A DNA stretch of 62,854 nt, filler included, from Gonapodya sp. JEL0774 (Eukaryota), in NCBI GenBank assembly GCA_027604505.1. It is 19 parts of 19 records of this genome, joined end to end, with 100 filler letters (N's around TTAATTAATTAA, not from the genome) between each part and the next. Parts side by side here need not be neighbours in the genome. Positions count along the whole stretch, not along the records: positions 53,059 to 56,259 come from JADIIX010001407.1; 18 more parts are not named here. The stretch is one strand, 5' to 3'. The position numbers were made by a program, and so were the translations under genes. Under the pieces are notes generated by a model. That model saw nothing but the letters and a program-made list of their open reading frames with translations, was not told the DNA's origin and made no database searches. Shown piece after piece: positions 3,335 to 62,485 of this stretch. Numbering within the stretch: the first letter of the stretch is position 1; each line of letters opens with the position of its first letter.

Positions 3335-6300
3335 GAAAGTATGCACATGTCACAACACTCAATGCCGTCAGTGCATCAGCAAAATCACGCACTCGTCCGA
3401 AGAGACGGGTGGCAGGAGAGCCATTCTAACAGCGTATCCAAGTGGTATTTTAGCTTTGTCCAGAGTAAAGACAATGAGAAGTTATAGGTCTACCGGAGAA
3501 TTGATGTCAAAGAAGGAACACTGACTCTTCTGCTCGAGACCATCCAAAATCGACAGAATGTCCTTGATGGATTTCAATAAGACGGATGGCCGAAGAATGT
3601 CGAACGGAATCTAAAATGATAGATTGAATGGCATCGACATCCGCTAGTCTCTGCGATACCCAGAATATCATAATATCGTCCTACTCACGGTCGTATCAAC
3701 ATCCTTCAACAATGGATCCTTCCGATCGCCTCCAATCAAGTTGACTGGAGAGGTTGACTTGTAGACGAGAGCGTTCACGTGACTGCAAAAGTGAACACAA
3801 ACCCTCTCACTACAGAGTCCGACATAAGTTAACAATAAGTTTTCTGACCTCGTCACTCGTGTCGTAATGGCCCGAATCAAGAATCCAGTCGGACGGTATG
3901 CTAGATCATATACTTGTACTTGTTCCTTCTGGTTCAGCGATGTTACCAACGCGTGCATGGCGGTTCGCAACTGCCAGAGCCTTGACCAAACAGTTCAGGT
4001 AGCCAAAATTTCCGTGAAGTTGGAGACACATCGGTGCTCACCGTTCTTGCTCTGCTGTGGAGACGGATGCGCCAGGAGTGGTTTCTTGTTTCTTCTTTTT
4101 GAGCTTCTTTGTTTCTTTGAGATTCTCAATTGATTTCTTTACCACCTTCGTGACGGTGTATTGGCATCAATGGCAGTGGCTCGTGTAGCATCCAATCATC
4201 TTCTGAACCTGAATTCATCCTGGCACTTACCGCAGCGGACGCCTTTTGCGACTCACCAGCAAACTCGACCACCAGATCTGCCGCGCGTGAGCTCACAGTG
4301 GTAAATAATTCTTCAATAAAAGTTCCAGCCACCACCTTAAAGTGGTCGAACTAAAAATCAAACATGCGAGCAATGGTTAAATAGTGTGGTTGCCAAATGC
4401 CTCGGGGCTTACCCAACAAAAAAAAAGTACCTCCATTGGAAAAGCACTCGCCGCGCACATCGGCGCAGCGATTAATACATTGGCGTACCCGATAATGTAT
4501 CTTTGCTGGTCCGAAGCCATGGAACTCGGGGCCAATATATCCTCCACATGTTCATTTATCTCATTGGTATAGAAAACGAGCTCTTTGAGTGAATGATTCG
4601 ACTCCATAAACCCTTCGAAGTCAGCAAGAGGTGCCACAATGTACATCAACATGTCCATTTTCCCCGCCAATTCAGCGAATACGCTGGCCTTTTTTATTGC
4701 GGCGCCGTGGGAGGAGGCCAAAATCTGCACCTTGAGCCAAGCGGGTTCAACCATTTTGAGCGCGGGCAAGTCCATCGTGCCCTCGGCAACGGCAACGAGG
4801 GTGCTCTCGAGGTCACCGACGATGGCGAGGGCGGCGCGTCCACTGCTGAAGGAATCTTCGACGGAGTTACGGACGTTAAGAGACGCGAGATACGTTTTTA
4901 ATCTTTCTAGGCGGAGCTGATGAATTGCTAGCGGGACAAAACAATTCAACACTTCATGGGCTCAGATGCACAAAGGCGGCAGCCGAGCTACCTACCTTTT
5001 TTCATCCCCCTCAAAGTCGCATCCAACCTCCAAGTCTGCCAAACAAGTTCCGTGATCGTGCCGTCCAGGTTCGTTCGGCCCCCTTTATTCGGTTTCTTGC
5101 TCAAGGATGACATCCTCTCCAGGTTGGAGAAATACCACAATATTTCATCTTTGGAAGTCGCAAGGGCGCATAAAAAGATCTAAAACCGGTTACGCGGGGT
5201 GGTAGTGGTGTGTGTGTGGGCGGAGGGAGCATGTCAGGTACCGTCAATTTTATTGGTGTGTCCGTTGCACAGTGTGAGCGAGAACGACTTACGTCCAGCA
5301 GCGTTCCTAAATGCTCAGGGCAATTAGAGAGTGGGACGAGTTTCTTAAATTGCAGTCGCAGATACTCTCGGCGTTCCTTATGTAAAGCGATTTGGGAAGC
5401 AAGGGTGGTATCGCTAAACGTACGCGTTTGAGTGCAGGAGCAAAGTTGCTGGTTGGTTGAAGATGAAAGTAAGAGAGTGTGAGAAGCCCCCAAGGGTCAA
5501 CGTACGATAGCCGGGGAGCGTTCTTGAGCTTCACTTTCCCGATTTCGTCCGGGACGTAAAGCAACTTTCATTCACAAGGAGGGTTGTTACCACACAAAAT
5601 AATTACTAGTGGTCCGAACGGAAGGCAGCAAGACGAAATTTCCCAAGAACATACGATGTTTCGATCGATTCTTATGGCCGACCCAAATTCGTACGCGGTG
5701 GCTAAGAGGTCCGTGTCCTTGTGGAACTCTTGTGGGAAGAGGAGATACGGAAGTACAAGGTACCCAAATTTGCGGCTGCTTGTCGAGTAGCCAGAAGCGT
5801 TCTACGTTTGTGGAGTCGTTACAGAGTAGTGGAGTAAAGATGAGGAGTCGTTAAATTCACAGTTACTGTTCCCCATTGTCGTTGCAAAGTACAGACTGAC
5901 CAGGAAGTCCAGTTCCTTTGGCATCGACGCTTGCGTTGCCACCATTTTCAAATCCTCAGGCTTGATGCGGGACGCTGTTCGAGGTAAATTTGGATTGCGG
6001 AAAGTGGCCAATACGTCGCAGAGCTTGTAGATCGATCCAGTGACGTCCGGTGGTACAATCTTTCCCTCACAGGTTTGAATGAGTCTGGAAATCCTAGATG
6101 TTATCGGCGAAATATGTCGTGTTGGTTATTTCAAGTTAGAAAACAAGAGCAATCTGCAATCTCTCTCGGCATAGAGACCAGCGGTGGTAAGACTGTGTCC
6201 ACTCAGCCTTGGTTTGACCTCTTTAGGCTCTCTCACAACAGCTCACGTTTTGCACCCTGTTATATGATCCGCTCCGGGAGCAATATGGGGCCATAGGACC
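3335..6300 (-). pseudogene. Fragmented, probably decayed gene of unknown family
   Basis: Several protein-like minus-strand ORF pieces (5802-6011, 5101-5493, 4377-4952, 4126-4335, 3668-3970) interrupted by stops and frame changes. No recognisable motif. Confidence 0.3.
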
Positions 6301-6668: not shown

Positions 6669-9600
6669 GCTCAACTCATCCACGCAGCCATCCAACAACC
6701 GTCCAGATTCGGTAAAGACCGGTCATTGACAGACACGGCCTTGTTACTCTGGCACGCGGAAAGAGCAGACGCTGTAGAGTGTGTCGAGTTGGTCGTCAGG
6801 GGCGCTTATGGGGCAGAGTTTGTGGGGACCCCGGTGCGACACACGCTCCGCACGTTTGCGGTCGAGGTGCTCGGACTGCCCGAGATGGTTGATCCGTCGT
6901 CGACCGACTTCTCTGCAAACACAACCAACAACACCCGCACATCGGCGTTCTCCACCACAACCACACCCACAGCAACGTCCTTCTCCCTCCCCCACCACCT
7001 CCTCTCCCTCCTCTCCTCCCTCTCGAACCCCACCACTCTCTCCACTCCCAACACCTCGACCTCTTTCACTCCCACCCCGCTCCCCCCCACCTCCCTCTCC
7101 CTCCACACCTCCCACTCCCACTCCCTTGCCCACCGCTCCTCCATCCTCCTCTCCTCCCTCGCCTCCCACAACGCACTCTCCCCACCAGCAGCCCTCGACT
7201 GTCTCCGCACGCTCAAACAAGCCACCATAGACGATATCTGGTGGAGGGCCATGTTCGTCACCGTGGCAGAAACTCTCCGGGTGTCCCCCTCCCACTCCAC
7301 GTCCCACCACTCCCCGACCGACGATGACGACCACCACCACCACCACCACCACGGCCCGCTCTTTTTGCGCGACAAGGACCTCATCCGTGCCATGTGGGCT
7401 GAAATTGACGGGAAGAAGACCGAGTGGAAGTGGGACGGATTACGTGCTGCAACGGGACTGGTGTGGGTCGTGGCAGCAAGGGTGGTGGCCGAGGTATGTT
7501 GGTTGTGGGACAAGGGGGTACCGGGCGGGGTTTCATTGGGGGACTGGGGGTCGGGGCAGTGGCGGGTTTCGTCTGGCCGGTCGGACACGTTTCCGGTTCC
7601 TCGTGCTTGTCTCTGACGGTGTAACTCACACATGTTCCTCCCTCGTATCTCTCGTCCTTCCCTCCCCCTCTCACACCCTATCGCACCTCACTCCACCAGT
7701 CCGACCCCACACCACAGCCCCACCTCACCCACCTCACACCCAAAACCACCTCCCTCATCGACTCCTCCGCTCTCCTCTTTTTCCGTACCCAGTTGCTCGC
7801 CTTCCGACCCTGGCACTGGACGTGCGACGGTGTCCTCACGCCACCTTCCACCCCCGCGCGTGGTACCGGTGCGGCGTCGTTCTTCTCCTCCGTGCCTGAC
7901 CAACCCTCCCTCGACAAGGACCTCCACGCGCGCTGTCTGAGCGTGGTGGAGGACTGGGTCATCGGGTTCTTGCAGCGGTGCGGCACGGCGGTGTGGAGGG
8001 CAAGGCAGGTCGAGGAAGATAACGCGGGTGGCGGGGCGCCGTCCGCGGCCACTGCGTCCAGCTCAACATCGGGGGACCATCACCCCACCCGCTCAACCCG
8101 CTTCTCCTCGTCCTCCCACCGTGCGTCCTCCCCAACAACAGCCACCACGACCTCCCCCGTCCCCGCCACCCGCCTTCCCCCCTCTGACCCGCCTTTCACC
8201 TCCCTGCTCCTCCTCCTCCACCTCCTCTTCCGTGGCCGCCCCGACTCCTCCTCTGCCCTGCGATTCTGGCGCACTCCGGCATGCGTGGGATTCTTGAACC
8301 ACGCCAGGGACACCACAAGTGCCACGGCCAGGGCGGCGGTGTTTTTGGCAATCGTCGGGGTGGCGGAGGGGGGGAGGTGTGCTGGGGAGGCGTTTAGGTA
8401 CCTCGAAGGAGCCGGTGGGGGGCGGGGGTTCGGAGGTGCGGGAGGGATAGCGGGGTATGGGACTGGGATGGGGCAGCAGCACCATTTGTGTAGCTGGAAG
8501 GCCCTCGCGGCGGGTGTGGAGTATTCTACCAGGGTGGCGGTCCAGTCTGCGTCCGCGGGCCCCACCGCCACCTCCACAACCACCACCCCTACCACTGAAT
8601 CCGCCATCCTCACCGCCTTCCTCCACCTCCTCCGCACCGTGGTGTCCTACCACACCCCGGCCCGACTCGCCCTGTCCGGCCTCCACCCGCACCCGCACCC
8701 CCACCAGCGGTACGCAATGCTCGACCTGTGCGTCGCCCTCGCGGTGGCGCCGGTGCCGGCGGGCGTCAAGGCCGCCGCGGTCGGCGCGGTGGGAGGCATG
8801 TGTGAGGGACGGGACGGAGCAGCGGAATGGGTGTGGAAGGTGGTGGAGGAGGCCGGGGTGGTGGTGCAGGTCCGTCAGGAGGGCGGCGCGGGTGGGGGTG
8901 GGGGTGTCCCGTCCGCACCACCCGCGCCGGCGACCCCTCCCGGCGCCCAAGCCGACCTGGAGCTGGAATCGTCTACGGGGAGGTACCCCGTGACCACGGC
9001 CCTGGTGGAGCTTTTCGCCACGTTGGTCCGCACGACGGTGAACGGCAGCGGCGTGGGCGGGGTGTACGAGACGCTCGGTGCCGGAAAAAGGAGTCCCGGG
9101 GTGAGGCCATATGTGGAGTGGGTCGTGGGAGGGGTAGGGGGAGAGGTGAGTTGTGCGTCGTTGGGAGGAACGGTGTGTTTTGTGAGATGGTCGTGGTGAT
9201 GGTGACGGATTTTTGCTTTTTGGGTTTGGCTCTGCCTGTTCTGTGTGGAGCTAGGCCGCGACGAGGTATTACGCCGACCCGGCCGAGAAGTACCGCCTGG
9301 TGTACGCTTACGTGAGGTTCGTCGAGGCGTGTTTGGACACGTTCGATCTGGGTGACGTGGCGGCGCACCGGTCGGCGCGACCCATCGGCGCGACACCACA
9401 CTCGCCGCCCCCGCCTCCGTACCCCGCAGTACCTGCAGTCCACGACCCCGCTCTGGCCGCCCTCCAGTCCGCCATCCACCACCCCGGGTTCACCGTCATG
9501 CTTGCCATCCTATCTGGCCACAAACTCGTCGACGATCTCTGTGCCGTGATCGCGGCGGAACCCGTGCCGGGCTTGGTGGGCGTGGAGGCGGTCGACGCAG

Positions 9601-9901
9601 GTACCGCAGCGGGGGTGCCGCCGGACTTCAAACCGGCGGTGATTAGGTGTATGAGGATCCTCACTAGAGTGGCCGAATTGGAACGGCCGTTTTTGGACAC
9701 TGTAGTGCCCGCGGTGCGGGATGCTGTGGCGGCTCGGGCAGCGGCGACAGGTGGGGGTGGACAGGGAGCCGGTGTGGGGTTGCCGGGTACGTTCGACCCG
9801 CCGGTCCGTGTTCCCGCGTCCCTGTTCACGCTCGCCGAAGTCCTGCTCAACCGTCGGGTGCCCGTGGTTCCCCGGATCGCCGCGTACGTGGGGTGTGCCT
9901 G
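6669..9901 (+). CDS. NUP192: Nucleoporin Nup192/Nup205 family, internal multi-exon fragment
   Basis: Motifs LLLLHLLFRGRPD...FW, ELESSTGRYPVTTALVELFATL, LGAGKRSPGVRPYVEWV, RYYADPAEKYRL and HPGFTVMLAILSG in ORFs 6726-7616, 7793-9199 and 9300-9901. Confidence 0.8.
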
Positions 9902-37004: not shown

Positions 37005-38051
37005 CTAATTTCGTCGTCGTCGACTTGATGAACCCGCTCCCCGACGGCTTTTGCGCCTACATCCACAACCACCCCCACCACTCACCGCGCTTGGAAGACT
37101 CAACTTGACTGTCGCAATCGCGTCTTTAATGGCTTTTTCATATGTTGCGGGGTGATGAAACTTTGGGCTCATGTCTGTGTGATACGTGAAAGATCGTGCT
37201 TCCCTATGCATCGGGATGACCTTGTTGCCGCATTGCGCCAGGTACACTACTTTGTTCTCTCCAGGCAAAGTTAATGAAGTAGTGTAGCGAGCGTGGGGGA
37301 CGATGTCGTGGTAGTATACGATACATGTACAGTGAGGTGCGACAATATCCTCCATACATGGTGGAACGCATGGAGGTGGCGCAAATGCAAAACCCTGGAG
37401 CATATCAGGGTTATCAGAAACATATTCTCCTCCCAAAGAAGCCATAATCATAATAAGGTACGCCGTGACTGCCGCGCCCAAGCTATGACCAATGACTTTT
37501 ACTTTTCCGCCATTTTGGAGCGCAGGAAGGGCATAACCGGCCCACACATTATGACCAGACTCAAATAAAATAGTTTCAGCTGCCTTAAGGAAGCCCGAGT
37601 GGACACGATTGGGTGAAAGTCCCACGCTAAAGTCTGTAAACCAATCGTTGATTTCTTCGGAACCCCTCACAACGATAGTAACATCTTTCGCGTCCTTCGA
37701 TGTGAAAATCACATAATATGGTGTCCAATGACCCGTTTGTTTGGAATAGAACACAAATCGCGACGCGTTATGCTTTGCACGTTCTTCCTGTCGACTTTTC
37801 ACGGCTGGGGTGATGACAAGTGTTTTCTTCATATCGTCGGAACGTACGTCTTCCGGGTGGAGTTTACTCCACGAAAAGACCGTGTGCGCGAGAGTCATAT
37901 ACTTTCCGAGTTCAATTAATCGGTCATATTGTGTCTGCGCTGGTCCCAGAGCCTTGTCGATCCCCGTCCCCGCATATTTGCAGATGGCGTCGTTGTCTTC
38001 TGTCCATAATTCCTCACATCTTTCTTTATAAATAGTCTTCCACGTCTCCAT
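37005..38051 (-). CDS. Intronless class 3 lipase (alpha/beta hydrolase)
   Basis: IVVRGS...DWFTDF, VHSGFLKAA, nucleophile GHSLG, FAFAPPP, Asp in DIVPH, C-terminal His (FHH). Single 348-aa ORF. Confidence 0.9.
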   Translation of the reverse strand: METWKTIYKERCEELWTEDNDAICKYAGTGIDKALGPAQTQYDRLIELGKYMTLAHTVFSWSKLHPEDVRSDDMKKTLVITPAVKSRQEERAKHNASRFVFYSKQTGHWTPYYVIFTSKDAKDVTIVVRGSEEINDWFTDFSVGLSPNRVHSGFLKAAETILFESGHNVWAGYALPALQNGGKVKVIGHSLGAAVTAYLIMIMASLGGEYVSDNPDMLQGFAFAPPPCVPPCMEDIVAPHCTCIVYYHDIVPHARYTTSLTLPGENKVVYLAQCGNKVIPMHREARSFTYHTDMSPKFHHPATYEKAIKDAIATVKLSLPSAVSGGGGCGCRRKSRRGAGSSSRRRRN

Positions 38052-38754
38052 GTCGTTGGGTTTGTTTGTTTTCTAGATCTCCAACTTACGAAAAAAGGAC
38101 AATCCCAATGCCATCCTGAAGGTTCCAGTATTTTCGCAGAGTTCAGTACATTCCTTGGAGTGATTGACGAATTGAAAATTTGGATCAACGCACCTGGCCA
38201 TCGGGCAATCAAGCGGATGTTGTGGTCGGATTGGGAGGCGCATGTGGCCAAAGACTTGCGCGAGTGCCCATGCCGCGGTCAACACACTTCCAACCATCAT
38301 GGCAAAAAGGGACCGATAGACCGGCCTGGCGGTACATAGGGAAAGCAACCATCCCACCACTATCAAGTCTCGCTGGGCCTCCCTTGTCTGGTCGACCAAT
38401 CGAGACCAACTCGCAACCTCCGCCTTCCCAACCCACACCGAGTTGTAGGCGGACAAAAGACCAGACCCCCTTATCACCGAAAACGACCGTTCAATCGTCC
38501 GATATGTTGAAAGGGACCTCTGATGGTACAGAGGGACTCCGTCGGATGCCGGAAAGGCGGTGCAAAGCCGAAGTATGTTTCGGTCAATTCCCCTCTTGAA
38601 CAACTCTGTTGAACACTATCAAAAAAAAAAAAAGGCGCAGCTGTATACTCTCCTCCGTCGCTTCAGGGATGTTACGGAATCGAACCACATTACTTCAACG
38701 ACAGGTGAATCCAACCCGAATCCCAAACCACTCGAATCTCTTGCAACGCAGAGG

Positions 38755-40461: not shown

Positions 40462-43052
40462 TCACGCCCCGGGTTTCTTCTGCATCACGGATTCCAACAG
40501 TGTCCGGGCATTCACGATACCGGTGGTCAGGACGACGAAGTCCCGTTGGACTAAAGAGTAGAACGGGCCAACGGGTTGGTGACAGAATATGCACGGACAG
40601 ACGAGAACACGAGTATCCGTTAGAATAGGTGTCATCACACAGTCATGATTCGAGCACGCCAAGAAACACACCTTCCTCCATCTGGCCCAAAAACCTCACC
40701 GCAGCCACCTCGGCATATGTACACCCTCCCAAAAACACCACCAAAGTCGTTTTACCCTTTCCCTTGGCCTTGCCCGCCGATCCAACACCAACATCTCCTT
40801 GTCCCTGAGTGCCCCCCGGCCCGCTCTCGCTCTCCGACGTCGCAGCAGAGGGTGAAGCAGTCCTTGCCCCGCTCTGTAACTCCTCAAAATGCGGACCGCC
40901 AGGGACCTTCTTCATCAGCTCGTCTACACCGCTCCATCCTACCGGACGGGGCGGTAATGGTATGGACACAGTCTGCACTCCATCTTTCCCCTTTCCTTGC
41001 CCCGATGACGTACCACCGACCGTACCACCAGCAGAGACCGAAAGACCCGAAGACGCTGGAGATCCCCCGACGCCCCCCGTGACGGCCATCTGCAAGACCC
41101 TCACACTCCCAGGCGCGTACCCGGAAAACACATATGACATGTCCGCCGGGTTCTGGTCGTCCACATCGTCCACGATAAGTCGCAGTTGCTTTCTGAGACC
41201 GGCGATGCTCCCTGTTGTGGAGGATGAGGCGGCCGTGGCTGAACTGCCGGCGAGGATGCGCGGGAAGCCGGAAGTGGTAGGGGCGTCCGGTTTGGGGAGG
41301 AGGCCGGCGGTGGAGAGGTGGTGAAAGGTGAGGAGGTGATGATATCCGTAGGTCTGGACAGTAGAGGTCAAGTAGATCAGTCAATCAGAATCAAACGCTC
41401 CTTTCACAGTCCGATCCACACTCTCCCAAACAACCCACACACCTGCACCACCTCCCTCCTCCAACCATCGTATCCCTTACCCTTCACGCCCCCCACTGCC
41501 ATATTGTACAAGCAAAGCAATCTGATCACGTCCTCCACCGGCTCCTGTTTCCCGATCATATCCTCGATCAAGTCGACGTGTTGTGGAGATGCGATGCCAG
41601 AGACAAAATTTTGCTGTGCTTCGAGTGTAGAGTTAAATTCTGGGGTGAGAGTGTGAGTGGTGATGAGCTCTGCGAGGTGGGTGTCTGTAGAGATTCGAAA
41701 CGACTTGACAGTGAGCAGATCGTTTTGGTATTTGAGGTTGAAAAAGTGGCCCGGAAAACTCACGCAACGCCACACTCTGATGTTCCTCCCTCAGTCCTCC
41801 CAGCCTCCCCACAAAGCTCCTAATCTCTCCCACCGTTTTTGCGGCATGGCGCTCCTCGTACTCGGTCTGGACCTTTCTCGCGACTTCATTTAGTACGCCG
41901 CCGACAACGGCAAAGTTGAGATCACGCAAACGAGCATGGAGGGGATCGGAGGATGAGAGGGGGACTTTGCGGCGGCGTGGTGGACCGCTGGGTGGGGCGG
42001 AGGAGTTTGCAGGTTGAGAGAGGACAGAGGCGTCCACTTCGATGAAGCCTGAGATAGTATAAAGTCACGGATCGGAAGGAGTTGTGATAAGACCAGTGAA
42101 ATGTTTTACGACTCACTGCTTCGAATACCGAATACCTCATCGATAAGTCCTTCATACGTCAGCTGCATGCACAGCGGTGTGACCAGATCCACCGACCGGT
42201 CGAGAACAATGATGCTGTCGATGGATGATATGGAAGGGAAGACGGAAGAGGATGGGCTGTGAGTTAGATTCGCAGTGTTTGCAAGGAGTTCTCGGCGGAG
42301 GTTGACGAGGAGATCAGCGAGAACCTAAACAAATTTCGTTTGAGTGTTCAGTTGATTGGAGTGAAACTTTTGTGGGTGACTTACCCGGGCATATGTCCCC
42401 TTCCCGACTATACGAGGTGCAACACCGTACAGAGTTTGCAGTTTCATGATGGCTTTCGCGAGGTAGTAAACGCAGGTGGTATCTCCTTCCTACCACCCAC
42501 AGTCAGTACATGGAGTTCCAAAAGGGAAGAACACAGAACGCACATGAGGTGATGGCAGTCACTCACCAAATAGAGTTCCCTGAACGACCCCTCCACCTCC
42601 AAACTCAAAAAATCGTCTTCCAATGGCACCAAATCCAGATGATACTCCCCGATTGTCAGATCAGCCAGCACACCCTCCTCTTCGAACAACTTTTCGCACA
42701 CCAAGGTCTTTCTAGGTACGAAAAACACGCTGAAGTCGATCGCCTTCAGAGAGGGGTCCGACGAGCTAGCCGTACGGGATGCTTTGACGTGATCGGCAAT
42801 TTGTCGGGCGAAGGAGAGCTTAGGGCGGCAGAGATAGAGGACGGAGCGGGATTCGTGTGAAATAGGGCCCGGCTGGAGGTGGAAGATTTTCTCCACGCCG
42901 TGCTCCTGGTGAAGCGATTCAGGCACACTTGAGGACATTGATCGTTAAATGTAGTACGAGTATGGCAGCTGACTCACTTTCAGAAGCGAAAACTCGGCAA
43001 TGAGCGATAATGGTCCACTCAATGAAGAATCTATCACCAACGTCTTCTTCCC
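40462..43052 (-). CDS. VPS33: Sec1/Munc18-family vacuolar sorting protein Vps33, 5' truncated
   Basis: FFVPRKTLVCEKLFEEEGV...DLVPLEDDFLSLE; LRDLNFAVVG; DMSYVFSGYAP; LVVFLGGCTYAEVAAVRFL; FVVLTTGIVN. Confidence 0.93.
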
Positions 43053-47546: not shown

Positions 47547-49045
47547 GGGCCCGTTTACGTGCAAGGTTTGGGGGCGGTTTGGGGGCAGTTTGAAGTTCCG
47601 GTTTGGAGCCGTTTACTTCCACCCCAGTTTTGTTCAACCAGAAGTTTTGACAAAACCAGAGGTTTGATCAAACCAGCCATGATGTTTACTTTATCGTGGT
47701 TTAATACCCAGTTTGAATATTTCAAACTGAAGTTTGAATTTTCCATAATTGATTTCAAACCTTGCTAGGGAGGTGAATTTGAACTCCAAACCACGCACCC
47801 AAAGAACAATACCCAATTGATTCAAAGCCTATTGACCCATCCAGAGTACATCCACCGTACCATCATGAACAAAAAGTCCAAAAAATCCGTTGGCGACGGC
47901 GAGTTGAGTTACGAAGCCACTTCTGGAAAGGAGAAGAACCCGAAGATCTCATGGACCGAGGACAAGTCCAATTTCTTGCTCAACCTTCTTGAGACGAGTA
48001 AGAAGAGCCCCAATGCTGCTAGCAATGGATTCTCACCGCAGCAGTGGACCCAGATACGGAACAGTCTGGTGGAGAGGTTCCCTGAGAAGGTGAACATTCC
48101 AATGGAATCTATAGATTTGCACTATCAATTCCTCAAGAAGAAGGTCAAAGCTGTTCGAGACTGCAGGAAGGAGAGTGGATTTGGATGGGATGACATTCTC
48201 TGCAAGATATCAGCAGCTCCTGGTGTCTGGGAACGGCTCAAGCTCGAGGTACAGTGTTCCCATCTCTACTGTCTCACATCCCCCTATATATATATGATTC
48301 TCTGCTCCTCCATTGAATTCAGAACAAGAAAAAGTATGACAGGTTCTACCCTCTTCCATAAGGCGCATCGTGTCTTGTCAGACAGCATTGCTGACAGCAA
48401 GTACGCTGCTGGTAGTGGCACAGCTCCGGACACCAACAGTGCTCTCAGTAAGTCTATTGTAGAAGGCTCAAAAGCAGATCTAGACCATGGATATGAGGAC
48501 TCTTCAGATGATGAAGCAACTGGTGAGTCGTGATCTGTTTCAATTGCATTACGGTAGAAGTTGTCATGTTCATGATATCTTCTGTAGTGAAAGAGGCCAT
48601 TCCTATCCCTCCATCACGTCGAGACTCTGATATATCTGTCAGAAGTCGTTCAGCCACACCAGTGGATCCTCCAGTTGTTCGCACCTCCCACTCAAACACC
48701 CGTGGTGAGAAGAGGAAGGCTATTCCTTTGGCCATTGAGCAGTCGTCTCAAGCAGTTGTGCAGGCTGTTGAAATGATGGGGGCCTTTTTCCAAGACATGG
48801 GCCAAGCAAGGAAGGATCGGGAGCAGGAGCGGGAGGCGAAAAGACTGCGGAAGCTTACCCCATTGGAACGTGCAATTGAAACAGTTGAGCATGACGGGTG
48901 GAACCAAGACGCTGTGGATCTTCTTGTGGATCTCTTCACCTCAGACAACAGAGCTGCTACAGCGTACGGAACTTTGAAAAACCGGGAGTCAAGAATTAGG
49001 GTCGCATTGGATAAAGTGAAGAAACTACACGGAGTTAGTTCATAA
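47547..49045 (+). mobile_element. PIF/Harbinger-like element, left end, with Myb/SANT-like accessory gene (CDS about 47865-49045)
   Basis: TTA (47544-47546) then GGGCCCGTTT, a Tourist/PIF-type TSD and TIR, exactly where the copia fragment stops. Protein ISWTEDKSNFLLNLL...GFSPQQWTQI...LKKK...ESGFGWDD...VWERL is a Myb_DNA-bind_3-type domain. Transposase and right TIR not seen. Confidence 0.72.
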
Positions 49046-49756: not shown

Positions 49757-50797
49757 GTGTGCGAGTCGTCACCGCCGGTCAAGAGGGCCATCTTGCAGAC
49801 CGTGGAGGCGCTGAGGAAGATGGGACATGTGGTGGTGGAGTTTAGGTACGTAGTGTGATGGGGTGTGTCAACACCAGAAACTGAGATTTGAAACCAGACC
49901 CATCACGCTCCCACCCTCCTTTTTCAAGCCCCTTCAAGGCCTTCCTCCTCACCTGCATGTCTCTCACCTACTTTTCCAGCCACGGGTACCTCCGCCTGGC
50001 CTCCCACGTCGACCGCACGGGCGACCCTCTGGAACCCTTCACCCGTTCCCAGTACCAGACCGCGAAAACCACCCGGGCCGAATCCGAGGCCCGCGCACAA
50101 GCGGCGTACGAGGCCACGGGGGATGCGATGTGGAAGGAGTTCTTGACGGCGGCGGGCAAGGGACTGGTGAGCGCGGAGGAGTTGTATAAATTGAACGTGG
50201 AGAGGAACGGGGTGTGGAAGGAGTGGTTGGAGGCGTGGGAGGGTACAAAAGTCAGTATGGGGTGTGGAAATCAGGGGCACGACGAGCTGTGTCTGAATTG
50301 TGAATTGATGGATTTGCATGCATAGCACCACCCAAAGAACCCAACGGGACTCCCGATGGACGCCATCATCTGCGAGGTGCAAACTCTTCCGGCCGTTCCG
50401 GAGTGGAAATGTGAGTATTTTTTTTTTTTGAAGCACCGCTGCTTCTGTGGCTGTCTCACCTCGTCTCTCCCTTCGACACCCAGCCCTCGAAGCCCCCTGC
50501 AACTTCACCGGCACGGTCCTGTACAACATCCTCGACTACCCCGGCGGCAGTATTCCCGTGACGACCGTCGACCCGTCCATCGACGGACCCTACACCACGA
50601 AACCCCGGTGGACTGGTGAAGCCATGGTGCACAAGGTGTGGAACGAGAACAGGAACACCATGAAGGGGGCTCCCGTGGGTGTGCAGGTGGTGGGGAGGAG
50701 GAGAGAGGAGGAGAAGACGTTGGAGGTCATGGAGGAGGTGGAGAGGTGCTTGAAGGTGGTGGCAGAGCGGGGGGGCGAGGGGAAGGGGAGGTTGTGA
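49757..50797 (+). CDS. Amidase-signature (FAAH/acetamidase-like) enzyme, 3' part
   Basis: SPPVKRAILQTVEALRKMGHVVVEF; MDAIICEVQTLPA; FTGTVLYNILDYPGGSIPVT; GAPVGVQVVGRRREEEKTL. Confidence 0.88.
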
Positions 50798-53058: not shown

Positions 53059-54361
53059 CCCTAGCCCCTCCTCGTGCATGTATCCCAACGAGTTCTGAGC
53101 GTAGCAGTTGCCCAATTGGGCCGAGCGTTCGTACCATTTGACGGCCTGTTCCAGATCTCGCTCCACGCCGATTCCTTCTTCGTAGCAGTGTGCGACATTG
53201 TACATGGAGACGGACTCGCCCTTTTCGGCGGCGCGCATGTAGTAGCGGAAGGCGAGTTCGAGGTCCTGAAAGAGAGTGTGAATAATTAGTTGCTGGGACG
53301 TGGAATGCAACTGCATTCTCGTTTCTCTCGAGAATCATTCTCCACGTTTCGGTCACACACCTTCTCCACCCCAAAACCTTCACCGTAGCAGAATCCTAGT
53401 ATTCCTTCACCTCTAGGTTGGCCTGCCTCTGCCGATCTCCGATAATAGTGTACTGCCTTCACTGGATCCTTGTCGACACCTACCCCATCATGGTAGCACA
53501 CGCCAAGAGCGTAATTTGCTAGTGTGGATTTGTTGAGTGGGGAGGTTGAGCATGCTAGGCACACAATACAACCACGGCGAGAATACAGTGTTGTCAAGCT
53601 CACCAGATGGCATATTACCCTCATCCGCGGCAAGAGTCAACCACTTCACGGACTGCGGACCCACGACCCTGACTTTCTTTATCCAATCTTCCGCCTCCAC
53701 TCGGTCGATTTTCACTCCTGGGCGACCATACTTTCTTAAAAAGGCCAGCCGTGCACGTGCGAGCCCTTCACCTTGGGCAGCAGCGGAGACGTACAGGGCT
53801 TCGGCTGCCTTGAAGTCCTCTCCCTCCAGTCCTAGGCCGAACTCGTTGCAAAATCCTAAGATAGCCTGGCATCGGTAATAGTGATGGCGGGTACAAGATT
53901 CGTTTTGATAAAATAGGCAAATGACAAAAGGTCCGAAGAGAGATAGAACCCACCTCTGCCCTCGCGAATCCCCTCACCGCTGCTCTCCTCAGCAATTTTA
54001 CAGCCACCTTTTGATCTTTTTCCTTGCCTCGTATGCCAAGCAGCAGTTTCTCCGCCTCGGACACCAAACTCCCGAGATCTTCCTCTCTCGACTCCACACC
54101 CGCGGCTGCAGATGAGCTGGAACCCGAGCTCCCGCTCAAGCTCGTCTTACGGAGAAGTTTTGAGAGAAACTGCGTCACGCCATGAGACTGTGATCCGGTT
54201 GCTGGGACTAAAGAAGGGCCTGCTGCTGGGGCGATCTGACCTGTGATTCGCCCAGTCGCGGTCAAGTCCACCGACCCCGTTCGGCGATTTGATGATGACG
54301 GCGGCATCGATGCGAGGTTCGACTGCGAATCTGCCGGCGGTTTGGCGCTGGCGGCAGTCAT
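53059..54361 (-). CDS. Sel1-like repeat protein, 3' truncated
   Basis: Repeated ANYALGVCYHDGVGVDKDPVKAVHYYRRSAEAG, SMYNVAHCYEEGIGVERDLEQAVKWYERSAQLG and AQNSLGYMHEEGLG across exons. Confidence 0.92.
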
Positions 54362-54833
54362 CGTTCCAGCTGGGATCGGTGTGGTGGACAATCTGACTGT
54401 GGTGAGCCTTATCGGAGAAAAGGGACAAACCTGCTGACCCGCATAGGAGGGAACGATAGGAGACAAGCCCAATATCGTGTAACATCTAAGAAACAACATA
54501 CAATGCGCGCGCGAGATTGAGGGCAATTCGCTCACTCATAAAGTAGAACGCTTCCAACCACAGTGCTCACGTCGTTTTGCCCCAACGTCATACTTTCACT
54601 GGCAGAGCATAGCATATACCGGAACAGCCATCAAACATGGATCAAAACGGTAGCTAGGTTTAATTTGAATCTCAATTTTTGCTTTGAGTTATGAGCCGCG
54701 TCCAGAGCCAAAATCAGATCAACCTCTCCCAAACTATCATATGTCTATTTTGTCACACTTTTCTTTATTTTCCAGTATTGTCTGACCCTGAAAAGCTTGG
54801 ATTGAATATCAGAAACTTGGATTATGCTGGCAT

Positions 54834-56259
54834 TCAATGAATTCCCTTGAAGACTGTCAGCCGAACGGCCAGCGCACCCAAAGTGAGAGCACCAACAAAG
54901 TACCAAAGTCCCATGCACACATCCCCATCCCCATTTCTTGAAATATACCAACAATGTGTTGCCTCTGTATCTTCCCTCATCTCAAGCCTGGCTATAGCAT
55001 TCACTTTCGTCATGAGATGATCGTAGAACCTGTCAATCTCCATAGCGGCGCGGAAAAGGGAAGAAAGCTCATAACCTTGTTGTTGGATAGAGAGAGATGG
55101 CGGTAGGAAAATTTGCGTAAATGTCCGGAGGTCTCCGCGGAGTGAGCGACCTCGTTTCGAAGTCGCAAGGGCTGAAGTAGGCGAAACTGGCGTCATCTTC
55201 CTCATCCCCGGAGCTGGCGCCAGCAATGCCAGGTCCAAGTTGAAGCGCATAAGCACGACACGAGAATAGAGCAGCACCAGTGCCAGGTCAAAATACACGC
55301 CAAAGAAGATGTCGACGAATGAGTGGTTGTCCGGAGTGGTCCAAAATGCCCCAGAGTGATATGAGAACCCATACTGGCTACCAAAATGCGTCCAACGTCG
55401 ATAGGTGATAGGATCGACCCAACTCAGTTCGAACGGAGTCGGGCCGCAGGGTGATGATGATGATGGAAGATCCACGTTGAGCAAGCGCACCCAGTGGCCT
55501 GAATCGTTCCCATTCGAGCTGTTGGTGAGGTGTTGTGAACTCGCCATTACGGCAGTCCACACAAATGCGCGGTTGTCGGGATACGACAGCCACCCTCTGG
55601 TGGACTCTGAGGGGGTTGGATCTGCAGGATCCGCAGGGTGGGATGTATCCAAAGTCTTGCCAGGTGAGTTCGACGACGCCAAAGACACCTCATAGTCGCG
55701 AGCTCTGGTAATCCACAGTTGTGGCATAATGTGCAGGTTTTGTTTGGTGACGGGATGCACCAATGGGCATTCAAGCATCCAGTCCCATCTACCAAGGTAG
55801 GCACGACTGATGTAATCTGCGTATGCTGCACGCGATGTTGGTGGAGAGTTACTTTCATCGAGAGTCAACTTTCCAATGCAGGCGTTTTTCCGCCAGTCGT
55901 ATCGGCAATCACTGAGCAGGTCCGAATACCCAAATTTAGGATGCGCGAGAAAGGGAAGTCGATAGTACTTGAAAAGCTCGTTCACCTATCATGTGCGAAT
56001 AACAAGGGGGATCATTAAATATAGGACTGAAACGACGGGGGATGAAACCCACCTGAAGAACGTCAGAGAGGTTCAAAGGATCTTCGCCATTCGAAGCTTT
56101 CGGTGTTTTCCCTGACTCCGTCACCTCGACTTTGGAGGGAAACACTAGATCTACGACCATAAAACCATGCTGGAGTGTGCTAGGAGTACCTTGACTTCTT
56201 GCATCACCAGTCGGAAACTCAAACAGAACCAGGTACGCTCCAGCCACCTCCATCTCAAG
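54834..56259 (-). CDS. CorA-like membrane protein resembling the type III CRISPR-associated CorA effector family; 5' truncated; one intron
   Basis: Intron 55986-56052 (CAG|GTGGGT...TAG|GTG) joins LSDVLQ|VNELFKYYRLPF. Ordered motifs follow: PDNRAFVW, WVRLLNVD, TYRRWTHFGSQYGFSYHS, YFDLALVLLYSRVVLMRF, SIQQQGYEL...MEIDRFYDHL, then a C-terminal hydrophobic helix. Confidence 0.75.
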
Positions 56260-56359
56260 NNNNNNNNNNNNNNNNNNNNNNNNNNNNNNNNNNNNNNNNN
56301 NNNTTAATTAATTAANNNNNNNNNNNNNNNNNNNNNNNNNNNNNNNNNNNNNNNNNNNN

Positions 56360-56511
56360 GGATCCATGGTGTGGTTGATAATTTGGAAGAAACCTGAAGT
56401 GACACATGCGGCGCGGATTTGAGCGGCGAGGGCGGCGAGGTCAGATGGGGAGGGTGTGGGGTTGCGGAGGACGGAGACGTCGATGGTCGGGATTACGAAT
56501 GAGAAAGTCAT
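56360..56511 (-). CDS. 2OG-Fe(II) dioxygenase N-terminus (DIOX_N)
   Basis: IPTIDVSVL...LAAQIRAACVTSGFFQIINH. Confidence 0.85.
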
Positions 56512-59500
56512 TTTGGATCGCGTGTGGGGATGTTGCAGTGGGTGACATGCAGGGTTTCAACGTTTTGTAAGTTTTCCCGGGGCGGGTTCATTGTGACCCG
56601 ACTGAATATATTTTTGTGCTCCCTTCTCGCTTTTCATCGTCGGCATGTCGGAACTCCACGAAACTCCACGTTGTGACAAACGGCTTTATTGCACGTCCGG
56701 TAGACCAATGATTCCCCTTGCTTCTGATCCGCATCCCAGTGCCATCCACGGTGCGTTATTGTAAAATAGATAGAAGACATTGACGACCGCATTCCGCCGT
56801 TTCCCCGGTATCCCGCGTTCATGAGGACGTGGGAAAGTGGAGAGCAGACTGAGCAGTATTGGAGCAAGCAACTGTTCACGAAAACACTATGCTATACTCG
56901 GTATTGCATATGAAATATCCACGCTGCTAATTTACACGATTTTTTCGGACCAGCTGAGCCTTTTGGATTCGATGAGTTGTGGCGTGCCAAAGCCATCGCA
57001 GAAATCGAAAACGTGCCCCAACCCGAAACGTTGGCAAGCACGCCTTACATTCAACTGGCAGAAACCTTTGCAAACGAACAGGCGCAGCGTGTACAGCAGC
57101 TCTTGTGGGCTGCTACAGTGAATCCCCCTTGTTGCACATAGCTGACCCGCTGATTACGTTCTCGATCGCGAATGATTCGCATCGGCGCCTCCTTCGAGAA
57201 GCATCGGCTCTTGCAGATACAAGGCAAGAGCGGTGGACATCGTCGACCATTGTGGCTTTTCAAAGTTGGTTTCGATGCGAATCAGCCGTTCGAGTACGTG
57301 GCATAAGCACCCAACGATTCACCTTGCGTGGACAACAAACTCGACACCAGTTTCGAAGGGCGGTTCGCGGCCAGACTTGGGAACCAGGAAGATTTCCAAA
57401 GGTCCGCACTGATGTCTCTGAGTTCGTTGTCTGAGTTTGGTGCATCGCCTAGTCAGTCCTGCGACGAGCTCCTCGTTTTGCAAGGACAATACTACTCTCC
57501 CGGAGCCCAATCCCGCATCATTCAATTCTATCGGCCGTTTTTCTTTGTTGGTGGAGTGTTTGCAGTAATTGAACTTGAGCGTTGTTTGCGAGCAACGCCA
57601 CGTTCCATTTCTGCAAGCGATTCAAACCGCGACGTGTCGCGCCTTGCCTCCATCTCGCCAAGCTCTACTCGGTCATAATCTACAACATACATGATGCTCT
57701 CTCTGTGAGCTCAAAGCGTGCCTCGGGAAAGCCCCTTATAATTGTCTTTACTTGCTACGTTTCAACCATTTGCGAGTACATCACTCCGTCCGCTCCTCAC
57801 AATTCACCATTATTGTTCCGTCAGTGTCACTGAGGACGTGCACAAATGGCACTTGAATCTGCCTTCAGAGGGCATTCACATGAGTGCCAGGTGTTCCAAT
57901 TCTGCCTCAGCAACCGCCCCGCGCTAGCCCAACTGCTCTGCTTGAATTGGGCATGGAAGCACCACACACCCGAGAGCTGACCGTCGTTTATGAAGCCCGT
58001 TCCCTTGTATCCTTGTTCTTGCCCTCCGCTGACGGCCTGCATGGGACGCACCCTGCAGCGACTGATGCCTGTTGCTGTGTGCTATGAAACTTGAGACGCA
58101 GATGTGTACTCCTTGCTTTTTCGCGTGGTGTAATGTTCTGGGCCATGGGGGATTGCCCAGGCGTGACTGGCGACAGACGATCCTCAAGTATCGACTATCG
58201 TATCTTGTCACAATCATGTTCGTTGTGATCCCACTTCTCTTTGGCTTTTGACCCTCTATTCAGATCCACATGAGCTCCGTGCACAATTGATAACCGTGCA
58301 ATGCGCTTGACCTTGTCTTCTCGAACACCCACCGTTGGTAAGCTCTGTGCCTTTTGACAAGGCAGGTCCACACATTAAGGCCGCAAAACAGCTCATTCTG
58401 CCTGCGCATTTCACATCAGTTGCACCAAAAACTCCGCCCACTCGAACCGTCTCCTCCTGTCCGCAATGCAATTTCACCGACATACCACCGTTTCACCAAC
58501 CCGCCATTTCGCAAAGAACATGCTTTACCGTTCTCCTGTGTGGTTGGTGTGCACGGAGCGCCGACGCCCGGGCGGGAAGGCTGGCACGTGTTTGGTGAGG
58601 TGATCGGGTCCACCTGCCAGCGTGACAGCGACCAGCGTGGTACTTCTCTACGTGAACATGCGAGACGGACCTGATGGAAGCTCCCACGCCCAGCAAGTCA
58701 CTAGTGTTGATATCGTAATACAGCCATGTACACGCAGTACAAAACGTACTGTGAAATGTCTACCGAATATATCTCTCCGCGTCCGTGGACATCAAAATTC
58801 AAACCGGTACCTCCATCCCCCGTGCCCCGCCCAGGCTCGCACCGTCCACCCTCCCACCTGCCACTTCCCATGCCCTTCCCGCACCCACCACCCCGACCGG
58901 CTCGCCCGGCCGCCCGTCCAGTCCCACCTGTACCACCGCCTGTCCCACCCACGACCCCCTCCCCTCCGGAGCCCCGTACCGGCGTGCCCGAGTCTCACTG
59001 TACCCCATGTCAACCAGCACTTGTCCCTGGAGACCCTCTATCTGGTTGACTTTGTCGTGCTCGGACACGCACCCGTGTTCCCTCCTCCACTCCACATCCC
59101 CCCCCCCCCATCACGCCACGCCCTCCAGGCTCCACCACCACGAGCCCTCACCATCTACCCTCCCTTGTGTCCGTTGTCCCGCGGTATTCCCCTTCCTCCC
59201 TCTCTCCTCCACTGATCCTCCCACGTCCCACTTCCTCCTTCCTCCCATCCCACCCAAGTCCCTAAACACGCACGCTCCCAATCTCTCCTCACCGAAACAT
59301 CCACAAGAGCAACAAAAAGCTCAAGACACCCGTCAATCCACCGAGGACCATCTGGTCCCGGCGCTTTTTGGAATAGATGGACGACACGAGGGAGAGGAGG
59401 GTGGGGAGGCGGGCTGGAGGTGTGGGGGGAGGTTGGCGTTGTTGTGCGGTAAGAGGGGTGGTTGGGAAGGGGAAGGAGGAGAAGGAGAAGGGACGGGCGC

Positions 59501-60585: not shown

Positions 60586-60705
60586 TATTTCACAGTTTTG
60601 TGAACGAATTGGGAAAATTTCTTTTGCAATTTTCCATGGGTGCAGTACTGCCCCATTTTTGTTTGCATTTTGAAACTTGGGATCGCGCATCCCACACCAT
60701 TTGCC

Positions 60706-62485
60706 ATGTCCAACACTGAGTCAAGAGTCTTAATCTCCTTGACTGGTGCCCAGAAGCAGGAAATAATTCGCGAGCATGACCGGCGGATCAAGGACACAGG
60801 GAGGGTCAGGAACAGCGACCTCGCAACCTGGGCGTTCAGGCGTTTTCAACTTCACAAGGAGCCTGACAGTTCTACCATCAGCCGTATCCTCAAGAATCGC
60901 AGATCAATAATGGCTATAGGCAAGGGCAACCTCCAAGCAAAACGTCTTGGAGCAATGGTTGCAGACAATCCCGAGCTGGATAAAGCCCTCGTAACCTGGG
61001 TCCATAATGCACTCCACATGGGCGTTATGATCTCAGGCCCACTTATTAAGGCACAAGGTCAAAGATTTCTCGAGGAAATCAACAGTAAACTCCCAGAAGA
61101 CAAGAAGATCAAGTGCCAGTTCTCCGAAGGGTGGCTCACAGCTTTCAAATCCCGTCACAATCTCCGAGCTTTCAAAACACACGGAGAGAGCAGGGATGCA
61201 GACACAGCTGCACTTACTGCTGCTCTCCCAGATTTGCAAGCCAAAATTGCGGAGTTTGCTCCTGAAGATGTGTACAATGCTGACGAGACCGGCCTCAACT
61301 TTTCAGCATCACCTGACAAAACCATTGCTTTTCAGCGGCCAGAAGGACGAAAAGTGGACAAGACTCGTATCACTGTCTTGATGTGCTCCAATGCAACTGG
61401 GTCCGACAAGTTGCCTTTGTTTTTCATTGGGAAGTCCAAATCTCCCCGGCCTTTCAAACGCAAAACACCGGCACAACTTGGTCTCAATTATGACAGCAAT
61501 GCCAAGGCATGGATGACCACTGAATTCTGGGTACAGTGGTTGCAGCGCGTCAACACTCATGTTGCGCAGGGCAACCCGGACCGGAAGATTCTCCTCATCA
61601 TCGACAACTGCCCTGCCCATGGCAAACCCTCCAATCTTACCACCTTTTCGAACATCGAGATCCTTTTCCTCCCACCCAATACGACATCTAAACTCCAACC
61701 CATGGATGCTGGGATCATTGCCTCCCTGAAGCTTCATTATCGAGGGAAGCAAATGCGACAGGCGATTGACCGGATGGAAGAACTGGTCGACAAGGATTCC
61801 GTGGAAATTTCGGAGGAGGAGAGAAAAAAGAAAGCGGAGATTTACAAGGTGGACATCTTGACAGCAATGCAGTGGTGCAAGGTTTGTTTCGATGAACTCG
61901 AAGTGCTGTGGTGCGAATCACAAACTCATATTTTATTCTCAGGCGGTCTGGGCAAACATGCCTGTTACAACAATTCAGAACTGCTGGGCTCATACAAAAC
62001 TGATGACAAAGGAGAGGATTCTTGGTGTCGTTGTTTTGGGAGGAAGCTCAGAACCTGATGTTGAGGTGGATCAGAGGGACAAGGAAGCACGAAAAGAGGT
62101 GGAGGAAGCAATCAGTAAGCTTGTGGGACAATTTGCGCGAATGACGGTTGATGAATTCATAAACCAACCGGGAGAAGAACAAGTGGGTGAGGAGGTATCT
62201 GAAGGAGACCTGATCACGGCAGCAGTCGGCAGCATCCTCGGAGAGGATGCAATGTCAATCAGTGACAGCTCCAACGAAGATGATGAGGGTGGTGAGGTTT
62301 TGGAGTTGAGTCTGGCAGAGAGGCTCAGGAGTCTTGCAATAACTGCAACGGAGCTGGAAAAGAGGTCGGACACCCTGTCACAGACCACATTGCGAGGAAT
62401 TCGTACACTTCAACGTGAACTAAGGCTGGAAAAGCAACTAAAATTATCTCAGTCTACTTTGGATAGGTATTTTAGCATTAAATGA
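60706..62485 (+). CDS. pogo/Tigger transposase (CENP-B-type HTH plus DDE_1, DD33D)
   Basis: FSEGWLTAFKSRH; VYNADETGL; LIIDNCPAH; FLPPNTTSKLQPMDAGII; intron 61882-61942; C-terminal QSTLDRYF resembles a PIP box. Confidence 0.95.

Follow-up and report, generated by a model that had tools for sequence, protein, structure and literature searches.

The gene at positions 54834–56259 (minus strand) of the window, the whole stretch of 62,854 nucleotides from Gonapodya sp. JEL0774 that was analysed, is, judged by its sequence, a homologue of the CRISPR-associated CorA effectors and not a canonical CorA, Alr1 or Mrs2 transporter. We tentatively read it, at somewhat short of an even chance for this reading as a whole, as the pore-less member (type B) of a fungal gene pair that derives from a type III-D2 CRISPR CorA effector, with B likely restraining its full-length partner (type A), a predicted nucleotide-gated channel.

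The window gene consists of two exons and a 67-nt phase-0 GT-AG intron (55986–56052, minus strand), with AGGTG at either junction, i.e. the proto-splice site AG-GT. Exon 1 is a remnant of 69 open codons (56053–56259) that is cut off by the contig end near the position of residue 125 in P0004, the orthologue from G. prolifera, with ~124 N-terminal residues absent relative to the latter. Exon 2 (54834–55985) provides 383 codons (55985–54837) and a stop, and encodes the soluble core, the stalk helices (54954–55253, as placed by a model of the orthologue) and a single hydrophobic tail (54849–54920). Without splicing, the exon 1 frame runs into a stop and the exon 2 frame opens only after two stops. 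Homologues are colinear over the junction with no indel, and the identical junction appears in the public gene model of a Gonapodya protein (P0003, 419 aa, from a contig of 3201 bp), which is a prediction and not RNA evidence. The G. prolifera orthologue is 48% identical to exon 1 (69 aa, E 7e-19) and 56% identical to exon 2 (348 columns). The initial annotation had described this intron, a missing 5' end and a series of motifs, all of which are found in the translations of the two exons; these points stand, as does its remark on a protein without GMN and with one C-terminal hydrophobic stretch, since the window protein has a sole hydrophobic stretch and contains no GMN segment.

As a whole, the window is composed of contigs of ~3.2 kb separated by N44-TTAATTAATTAA-N44 spacers. 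The gene's own contig spans 53059–56259 (3201 bp) and ends at the artificial spacer 56260–56359, beyond which lies another contig. Downstream of the gene, it also carries a Sel1-repeat gene (53059–54535, minus strand), truncated by the contig end, which is of use as host context only. As the initial annotation had indicated, this neighbour appears to contain several introns: the repeats are spread over three distinct reading-frame segments (E 5e-20, 2e-13 and 9e-8) with GT..AG candidates between them, two of which share the GTGGGT donor with the intron of the window gene. The other contigs hold pieces of ordinary genes, as expected of a eukaryote, which resemble Nup192 (7625–9899), Sec1 (40646–42944), Nckap1 (4380–4961), Lipase_3 (37008–38072), Myb/SANT-like (47769–48530), amidase (50432–50794) and DIOX_N (56360–56556). 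A Pogo/Tc5-type transposase (DDE_1, E 4e-42; HTH_Tnp_Tc5, E 2e-13) is located at 60604–62485 (plus strand) on a separate contig. A profile search over the six frames of the window found no match for cas10, NrN or Cas7-Cas5.

Exon 2 matches the PADLOC CRISPR CorA-like models PDLC01043 (E 6.1e-20) and PDLC01174 (E 2.4e-12), and a full sequence search returned 354 representatives at E<=0.001 among 1.84 billion; at these values, the match is not due to chance. All eight proteins scanned are recognized by the PADLOC CorA-like models, whereas Pfam CorA (PF01544) has no match at E<=1 in the window protein, in which no Pfam family rises above noise, and none in four fungal type B proteins. NCBIfam holds no family for exon 2, and a PDB sequence search with exon 2 yielded no match. 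The profiles thereby agree with the initial annotation, which had preferred CRISPR-associated over ordinary CorA homology. Traces of the wider superfamily are visible nonetheless: the family profile matches T. maritima CorA at E 0.002, over the stalk and first membrane helix only; the type A fragment P0051 carries a precomputed PF01544 annotation; and in an ESM Atlas search with type A the closest clusters were bacterial CorA-like (score 0.95–0.96). Type III-B CorAs (from two plasmids) are homologous but distant, with the Arcobacter III-B CorA at E 6e-44 on the family profile. The window gene falls short on two defining features, the pore and the CRISPR locus, and is hence not classed as a member of the CRISPR CorA family; type A has the pore.

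To place the bacterial relatives in context, GTDB genomes were scanned with the family alignment, giving 49 loci, and 80 ORFs from them were typed by PADLOC, which named a small Cas10, Cas7-Cas5 and multi-Cas7 fusions, Cas6, Cas2 and a CorA-associated DHH nuclease. With profiles made from these PADLOC-named genes of the same loci, cas10 was counted in 45, Cas7-Cas5 in 40 and NrN in 18 of the 49 loci, and at least one of the three in all of them. The cas10 gene lies less than 2 kb downstream of corA on the same strand in 41 of the 46 loci having at least 1.5 kb downstream, and repeat arrays were seen in 18 loci. Read from their sequences, two relatives are fused to an NrN-like part and one to a Cas10-like part. 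The bacterial CorA-like protein P0139 (1134 aa), as read from its sequence, runs on into a Cas10-like palm region, which could be a fusion or a read-through model; in one III-D2 locus (L001:18470–20293), a single ORF combines a CorA-associated DHH/NrN part with a reverse transcriptase; corA is flanked by two different cas10 genes, one on each side, in L023:224–5033; and in L016, L026, L044 and L048 the NrN gene faces corA from the opposite strand and corA does not head a cas10 operon. A pattern scan of viral contigs gave 18 matches but no relatives, and phages gave no match. In metagenomes, the fungal patterns found 268 matches with one relative, bacterial-like at 25% identity.

The fungal copies are monophyletic with a support of 1.0 in a FastTree analysis of 193 rows. 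The clade reaches an SH-aLRT of 100 under a mixture model (42 rows, a quick tree with P0159 left out) and 100/100 in a 16-row tree, which supports A with 100/99 and B with 100/100. With III-B as outgroup, it is nested among the III-D2 CorAs, the rows having been picked by similarity to the fungal query. The mixture model groups the fungi, at a support of 99, with loci from Verrucomicrobiota, Acidobacteriota and Cyanobacteriota; in FastTree the sister lineage differs, and the fungi are joined to four long-branched rows (0.82). This join, which the mixture model did not recover, was rejected as long-branch attraction. These results identify the type III-D2 CorA clade as donor lineage, in place of the B. 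fragilis III-B clade, which is an outgroup only, and the exact donor differs by tree method. A single transfer followed by a single duplication is the simplest reading. The initial annotation had proposed that a prokaryotic antiviral effector was transferred and then gained an intron, and had matched its motifs to the family exemplified by B. fragilis III-B; the position within the III-D2 radiation and the GT-AG intron agree with the first part, while the second has to be corrected, the relatives being III-D2 effectors.

Matches in eukaryotes are confined to four chytrid assemblies from two phyla, as far as word-based searches of limited sensitivity and length range can tell: two from Gonapodya (Monoblepharomycota) and one each from Zopfochytrium and Cladochytrium (both Chytridiomycota). 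Both paralogue types occur in each of them, A at full length with two membrane helices and B with one weak hydrophobic tail or none. Type A is represented by G. prolifera KXS21958 (P0012), Z. polystomum locus tag 799397 (P0158), the first part of C. tenue KAJ1554810 (P0011) and, in the assembly of the window organism, two fragments (P0159 and P0051) on other contigs of 1.3 and 1.5 kb (1467 bp for P0159). Type B comprises the window gene, KXS21959 (P0004), tags 799396 (P0005) and 926746 (P0006), and the second part of P0011. The search for paralogues in other chytrids suggested by the initial annotation recovered both A and B from G. prolifera, Z. polystomum and C. tenue. The accessions KXS21958/KXS21959 are consecutive, both on contigs of 1,492,162 bp, as are the tags 799397/799396, both on contigs of 196,361 bp, and P0011 is a single gene model in which the end of an A gene runs on into a B gene. 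A thus appears to lie directly upstream of B, an order read from locus tags, accessions and the fused C. tenue model rather than from the DNA itself, and to which the genome of the window organism contributes no adjacency. In the latter, A would lie upstream of B, past the contig end; no type A gene lies in the window, and a search of the window gene's contig for remains of an A tail found none (best E 0.11). The second Z. polystomum type B, P0006, is faster-evolving and sits on a 48-kb contig on which no A neighbour was found; it has no hydrophobic tail and a His for the invariant Asp. The homology of P0159 ends precisely at the intron position of the window gene and is followed by Val-Gly and a stop, like the unspliced window gene, likely reflecting an unrecognised intron common to A and B. 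This single protein end suggests that the intron predates the A/B duplication.

Against the taxonomy, C. tenue clusters with Gonapodya both for A (97/98) and for B (98/98). A species grouping that unites the two Chytridiomycetes is rejected for B at p-AU 0.039 (0.004 when a single Zopfochytrium copy is used); for A it is not (p-AU 0.26). This placement could result from a fungus-to-fungus transfer or from a mixed assembly.

The two-helix pore is missing in all five type B copies, where the C-termini of the copies other than the window gene rest on gene models. After the QQQG motif, B has 35–82 residues, A 152 and the bacterial rows a median of 131. The tail of the window protein has a Kyte-Doolittle value of 1.9, and the family profile does not align it with the pore helices; in three of the five B copies it is missing, and none of 62 alternative splices tried yields a stronger helix. 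The two-helix C-terminal membrane domain is present in P0012, P0158, P0051 and the N-terminal part of P0011. Across 124 rows (all bacterial except P0051), two helices are predicted in 98, three or four in 7, one in 16 and none in 3, so type A with its two strong hydrophobic helices resembles at least 105 of the rows counted. What the initial annotation had taken for a possibly degenerate 3' end is therefore a trait of the whole B class, not the decay of one copy. Likewise, its suggestion that the window gene itself encodes a channel does not hold for this pore-less protein; the candidate channel is A, found on other contigs of the same assembly and apparently beside B in the three other chytrids.

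Among the alignment columns that reach at least 80% conservation across 139 bacterial rows, 64 fall in the soluble core and 29 in the stalk. Either type retains 50 of the former, and of the latter A retains 25 and B 13 (Fisher p 0.41 for A and 0.003 for B, with a core/stalk boundary set after viewing the conservation data and alignment columns that are not independent). Orthologue identity amounts to 60–74% in the core and 33–51% in the stalk for B, compared with 59–68% and 69–77%, respectively, for A. Over the trimmed columns, A shares 69–82% identity across the two phyla, and the five B copies from four assemblies, all open frames, share 46–65%; the branches of B are longer and its C-terminus is variable. 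The predicted ligand core of B is kept as well as that of A, with a relaxed stalk in which the QQQG.E motif is retained.

In B. fragilis CorA, R152/R153 and D219/D220 are required for immunity (PMC10600005). Mapped by motif via the Arcobacter III-B protein rather than via the B. fragilis sequence, the leading residue of each pair in the putative SAM-AMP site, Arg and Asp, falls on a column with a conservation of 99% and 100%, respectively, across the III-D2 set, whereas the second Arg (R153) and second Asp (D220) are not conserved in the III-D2 clade or the fungi. Type A retains Arg and Asp. The window protein has Lys and Asp: the Lys codon at 55968–55970, the putative equivalent of R152, stands where 99% of 139 bacterial relatives and type A have Arg, and the DNR motif (55569–55577) supplies the Asp that is invariant across these relatives and probably equivalent to D219. 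Lys replaces the first Arg in five of five B copies, and the Asp is found in three of the four copies covering the site. In type A, GAS occupies the GMN position (4/4; GMN occurs in 49 of 180 bacterial relatives), Asp-Ser replaces Asp-Asn and long insertions are present; with these changes, the ligand and ion choice of A may have shifted.

Monomer models were obtained for the B orthologue (pLDDT 85.9, pTM 0.88) and for A (pLDDT 79.3, pTM 0.80), the latter with a continuous helix at 604–655 and a second membrane helix at 696–736. Neither model found a PDB match with Foldseek at E<=0.001, the best rows for A being CorA at E 0.02. VIA-align, run with the whole models, returned helical bundles: the cytosolic domain of E. 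coli CorA came first for the B orthologue, level with unrelated bundles (Z 6.4, rmsd 3.7, 107 aligned, confined to helices), and A aligned with C. jejuni CorA (Z 8.0, rmsd 4.4, 158 aligned), ranked under spectrin-like bundles. CorA-type kinship is thus visible only in the stalk and first helix, and the soluble domain has no clear match among solved structures. Of the combined check envisaged in the initial annotation, profiles favour CRISPR CorA, and the structural comparison did not add a significant match.

How might such a pair work? Type A would act like bacterial CorA, i.e. as a ligand-gated membrane effector: a signal, likely a SAM- or adenylate-derived nucleotide, would open this predicted nucleotide-gated cell-death channel, and B would serve as a brake on A, either by buffering the ligand or by docking onto A. 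Bacterial CorA is toxic without NrN, even in the absence of SAM-AMP, and its association with a degrading enzyme seems obligate (PMC10600005). As the bacterial effector seems always to be paired with a ligand-destroying enzyme, and the fungi without exception retain a pore-less copy whose core is intact, the brake is our favoured role for B. Its relaxed stalk speaks against B assembling tightly with A, and the exchange of Arg for Lys in all five copies may weaken the ligand binding that a sponge role needs. It also counts against the brake reading that we know of no signal-making enzyme in these fungi, and against the pair reading that P0006 lies on another contig without a found A neighbour. 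The pair may have an immune or cell-death role. A more far-reaching version, which we consider doubtful though worth stating, is that zoosporic fungi run an immune or cell-death pathway from a CRISPR effector, in which a SAM-AMP-like messenger, the product of an enzyme of the fungus or of an invader, opens A, B sets the threshold and the two-gene cassette moves between chytrid phyla.

Conceivably, the pair could instead have a housekeeping function, with A as a metabolite-gated cation channel, responding for example to SAM or an adenylate, and B as a soluble sensor of the same metabolite. The slow evolution of A across two phyla and its CorA-type C-terminal region (T. maritima CorA at E 0.002; PF01544 on P0051) would suit this, and Cas10 would be unnecessary; yet the distribution is patchy, unlike that of housekeeping genes, A is devoid of the GMN filter, and all bacterial relatives with context sit in defence loci, which makes this explanation unlikely.

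We regard it as rather improbable that B is an activating sensor subunit, such that A would be silent alone and open once B, upon sensing a ligand or invader protein, joins it, by analogy with the heteromeric RCD-1-1/RCD-1-2 pores of Neurospora. Fungal heteromeric pores of two related proteins are on record (PMC12881547), core and QQQG.E motif are retained in B, and both types occur strictly together in four of four assemblies. However, A holds the gating-linked Arg and Asp, of which B alters the Arg, so that A looks self-sufficient, and the stalk of B is relaxed. The odds seem similarly poor for a selfish poison-antidote or allorecognition element, in which A would be toxic by default, B its antidote, and linkage as well as spread among unrelated chytrids would follow with no antiviral role. 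This would fit the SAM-AMP-independent toxicity of NrN-less bacterial CorA (PMC10600005), the grouping of C. tenue with Gonapodya in both genes, including the rejected species grouping for B, and the restriction of eukaryotic matches to four assemblies. On the other hand, the species tree is not rejected for A, the same tree would result if the C. tenue assembly were mixed or misnamed, and the strongly conserved ligand core of both genes suits gating better than plain toxicity.

It is very improbable that B is a decaying, functionless duplicate of A: its longer branches, lost pore and variable C-terminus would be expected, but five frames have stayed open in four assemblies at 46–65% identity, its core is conserved as much as that of A, and the orthologue has a confident predicted fold (pLDDT 86, pTM 0.88). 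Bacterial contamination or a chimeric contig, which the initial annotation had already argued against, is scarcely credible: although the assembly comes in 3-kb pieces and the closest non-fungal relatives are bacterial without exception, a GT-AG intron breaks the frame, the Sel1 neighbour is split over frames, orthologues sit on fungal contigs of 1.49 Mb (G. prolifera) and 196 kb, the fungal clade has a long private branch, and the metagenome scan with fungal patterns returned one locus at 25% identity.

With its retention in fungi, where it has an intron and is conserved over two phyla, a CRISPR ancillary effector joins the few bacterial defence proteins that eukaryotes have taken into use, for which OLD-like genes in chytrids are a parallel case (bioRxiv 10.64898/2026.08.18.745644). 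It raises the question of the source of a SAM-AMP-like signal without Cas10. For structural work, the pore-less B makes the ligand domain available in a soluble, well-folded form, and the combination of channel and pore-less copy provides a handle on why CorA is toxic without an off-switch enzyme. In PMC10600005 and PMC13294483, CRISPR-associated CorA is described only from bacteria and archaea, and the string "eukaryot" is absent from the former. A search of literature listings and abstract openings found no report of a eukaryotic CRISPR CorA; the main text of a survey of horizontal transfer in early-diverging fungi (PMC11291939) names neither CorA nor CRISPR, and two of its supplementary files list neither KXS21958, KXS21959 nor the UniRef ids.

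Compared with canonical CorA, ZntB, Alr1 and Mrs2 (2-TM-GxN), the fungal family is related in the stalk and first membrane helix, but the window protein has no PF01544 match, a different N-terminal domain and no GMN. The SAM-AMP-binding type III-B CorA of B. fragilis (PMC10600005) is homologous and has the first Arg of GRR and the first Asp of DDR at family-wide positions; it differs in being an outgroup only, the second Arg and second Asp not being kept in III-D2 and fungi and B having Lys for the first Arg. Type III-B and III-D2 CorAs share 15% identity (PMC13294483). Of the same subfamily as the fungal genes is the III-D2 CorA of Gammaproteobacteria bacterium HyVt-522 (PMC13294483), with which they share the motifs NE.FR, DNRA.VW, TY.RW, YHSG and QQ..E, the fungi being nested among III-D2 corA genes. 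The tested III-D2 CorA carries ADNRAYVW and TY.RW (PMC13294483, Supplementary Fig. 9) and is required for growth arrest by SAM-AMP/SAM-AMP2 (PMC13294483). It has the same domain order and two membrane helices as type A. Unlike it, the fungal gene resides in a eukaryotic host, has an intron and lies on a contig without cas10, array, NrN or toxin-antitoxin genes, and the fungi have duplicated it into a full-length and a pore-less copy, the window gene being the latter. As an analogy only, the RCD-1-1/RCD-1-2 and HET-Q1/HET-Q2 death switches (PMC12881547, in whose accessible text chytrids were not found) place a pore-former under the control of a second related or adjacent gene product, as proposed here. 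Those systems use the gasdermin fold with alleles or a protease partner, whereas the chytrid pair would combine a CorA-type helical channel with a tandem pore-less paralogue.
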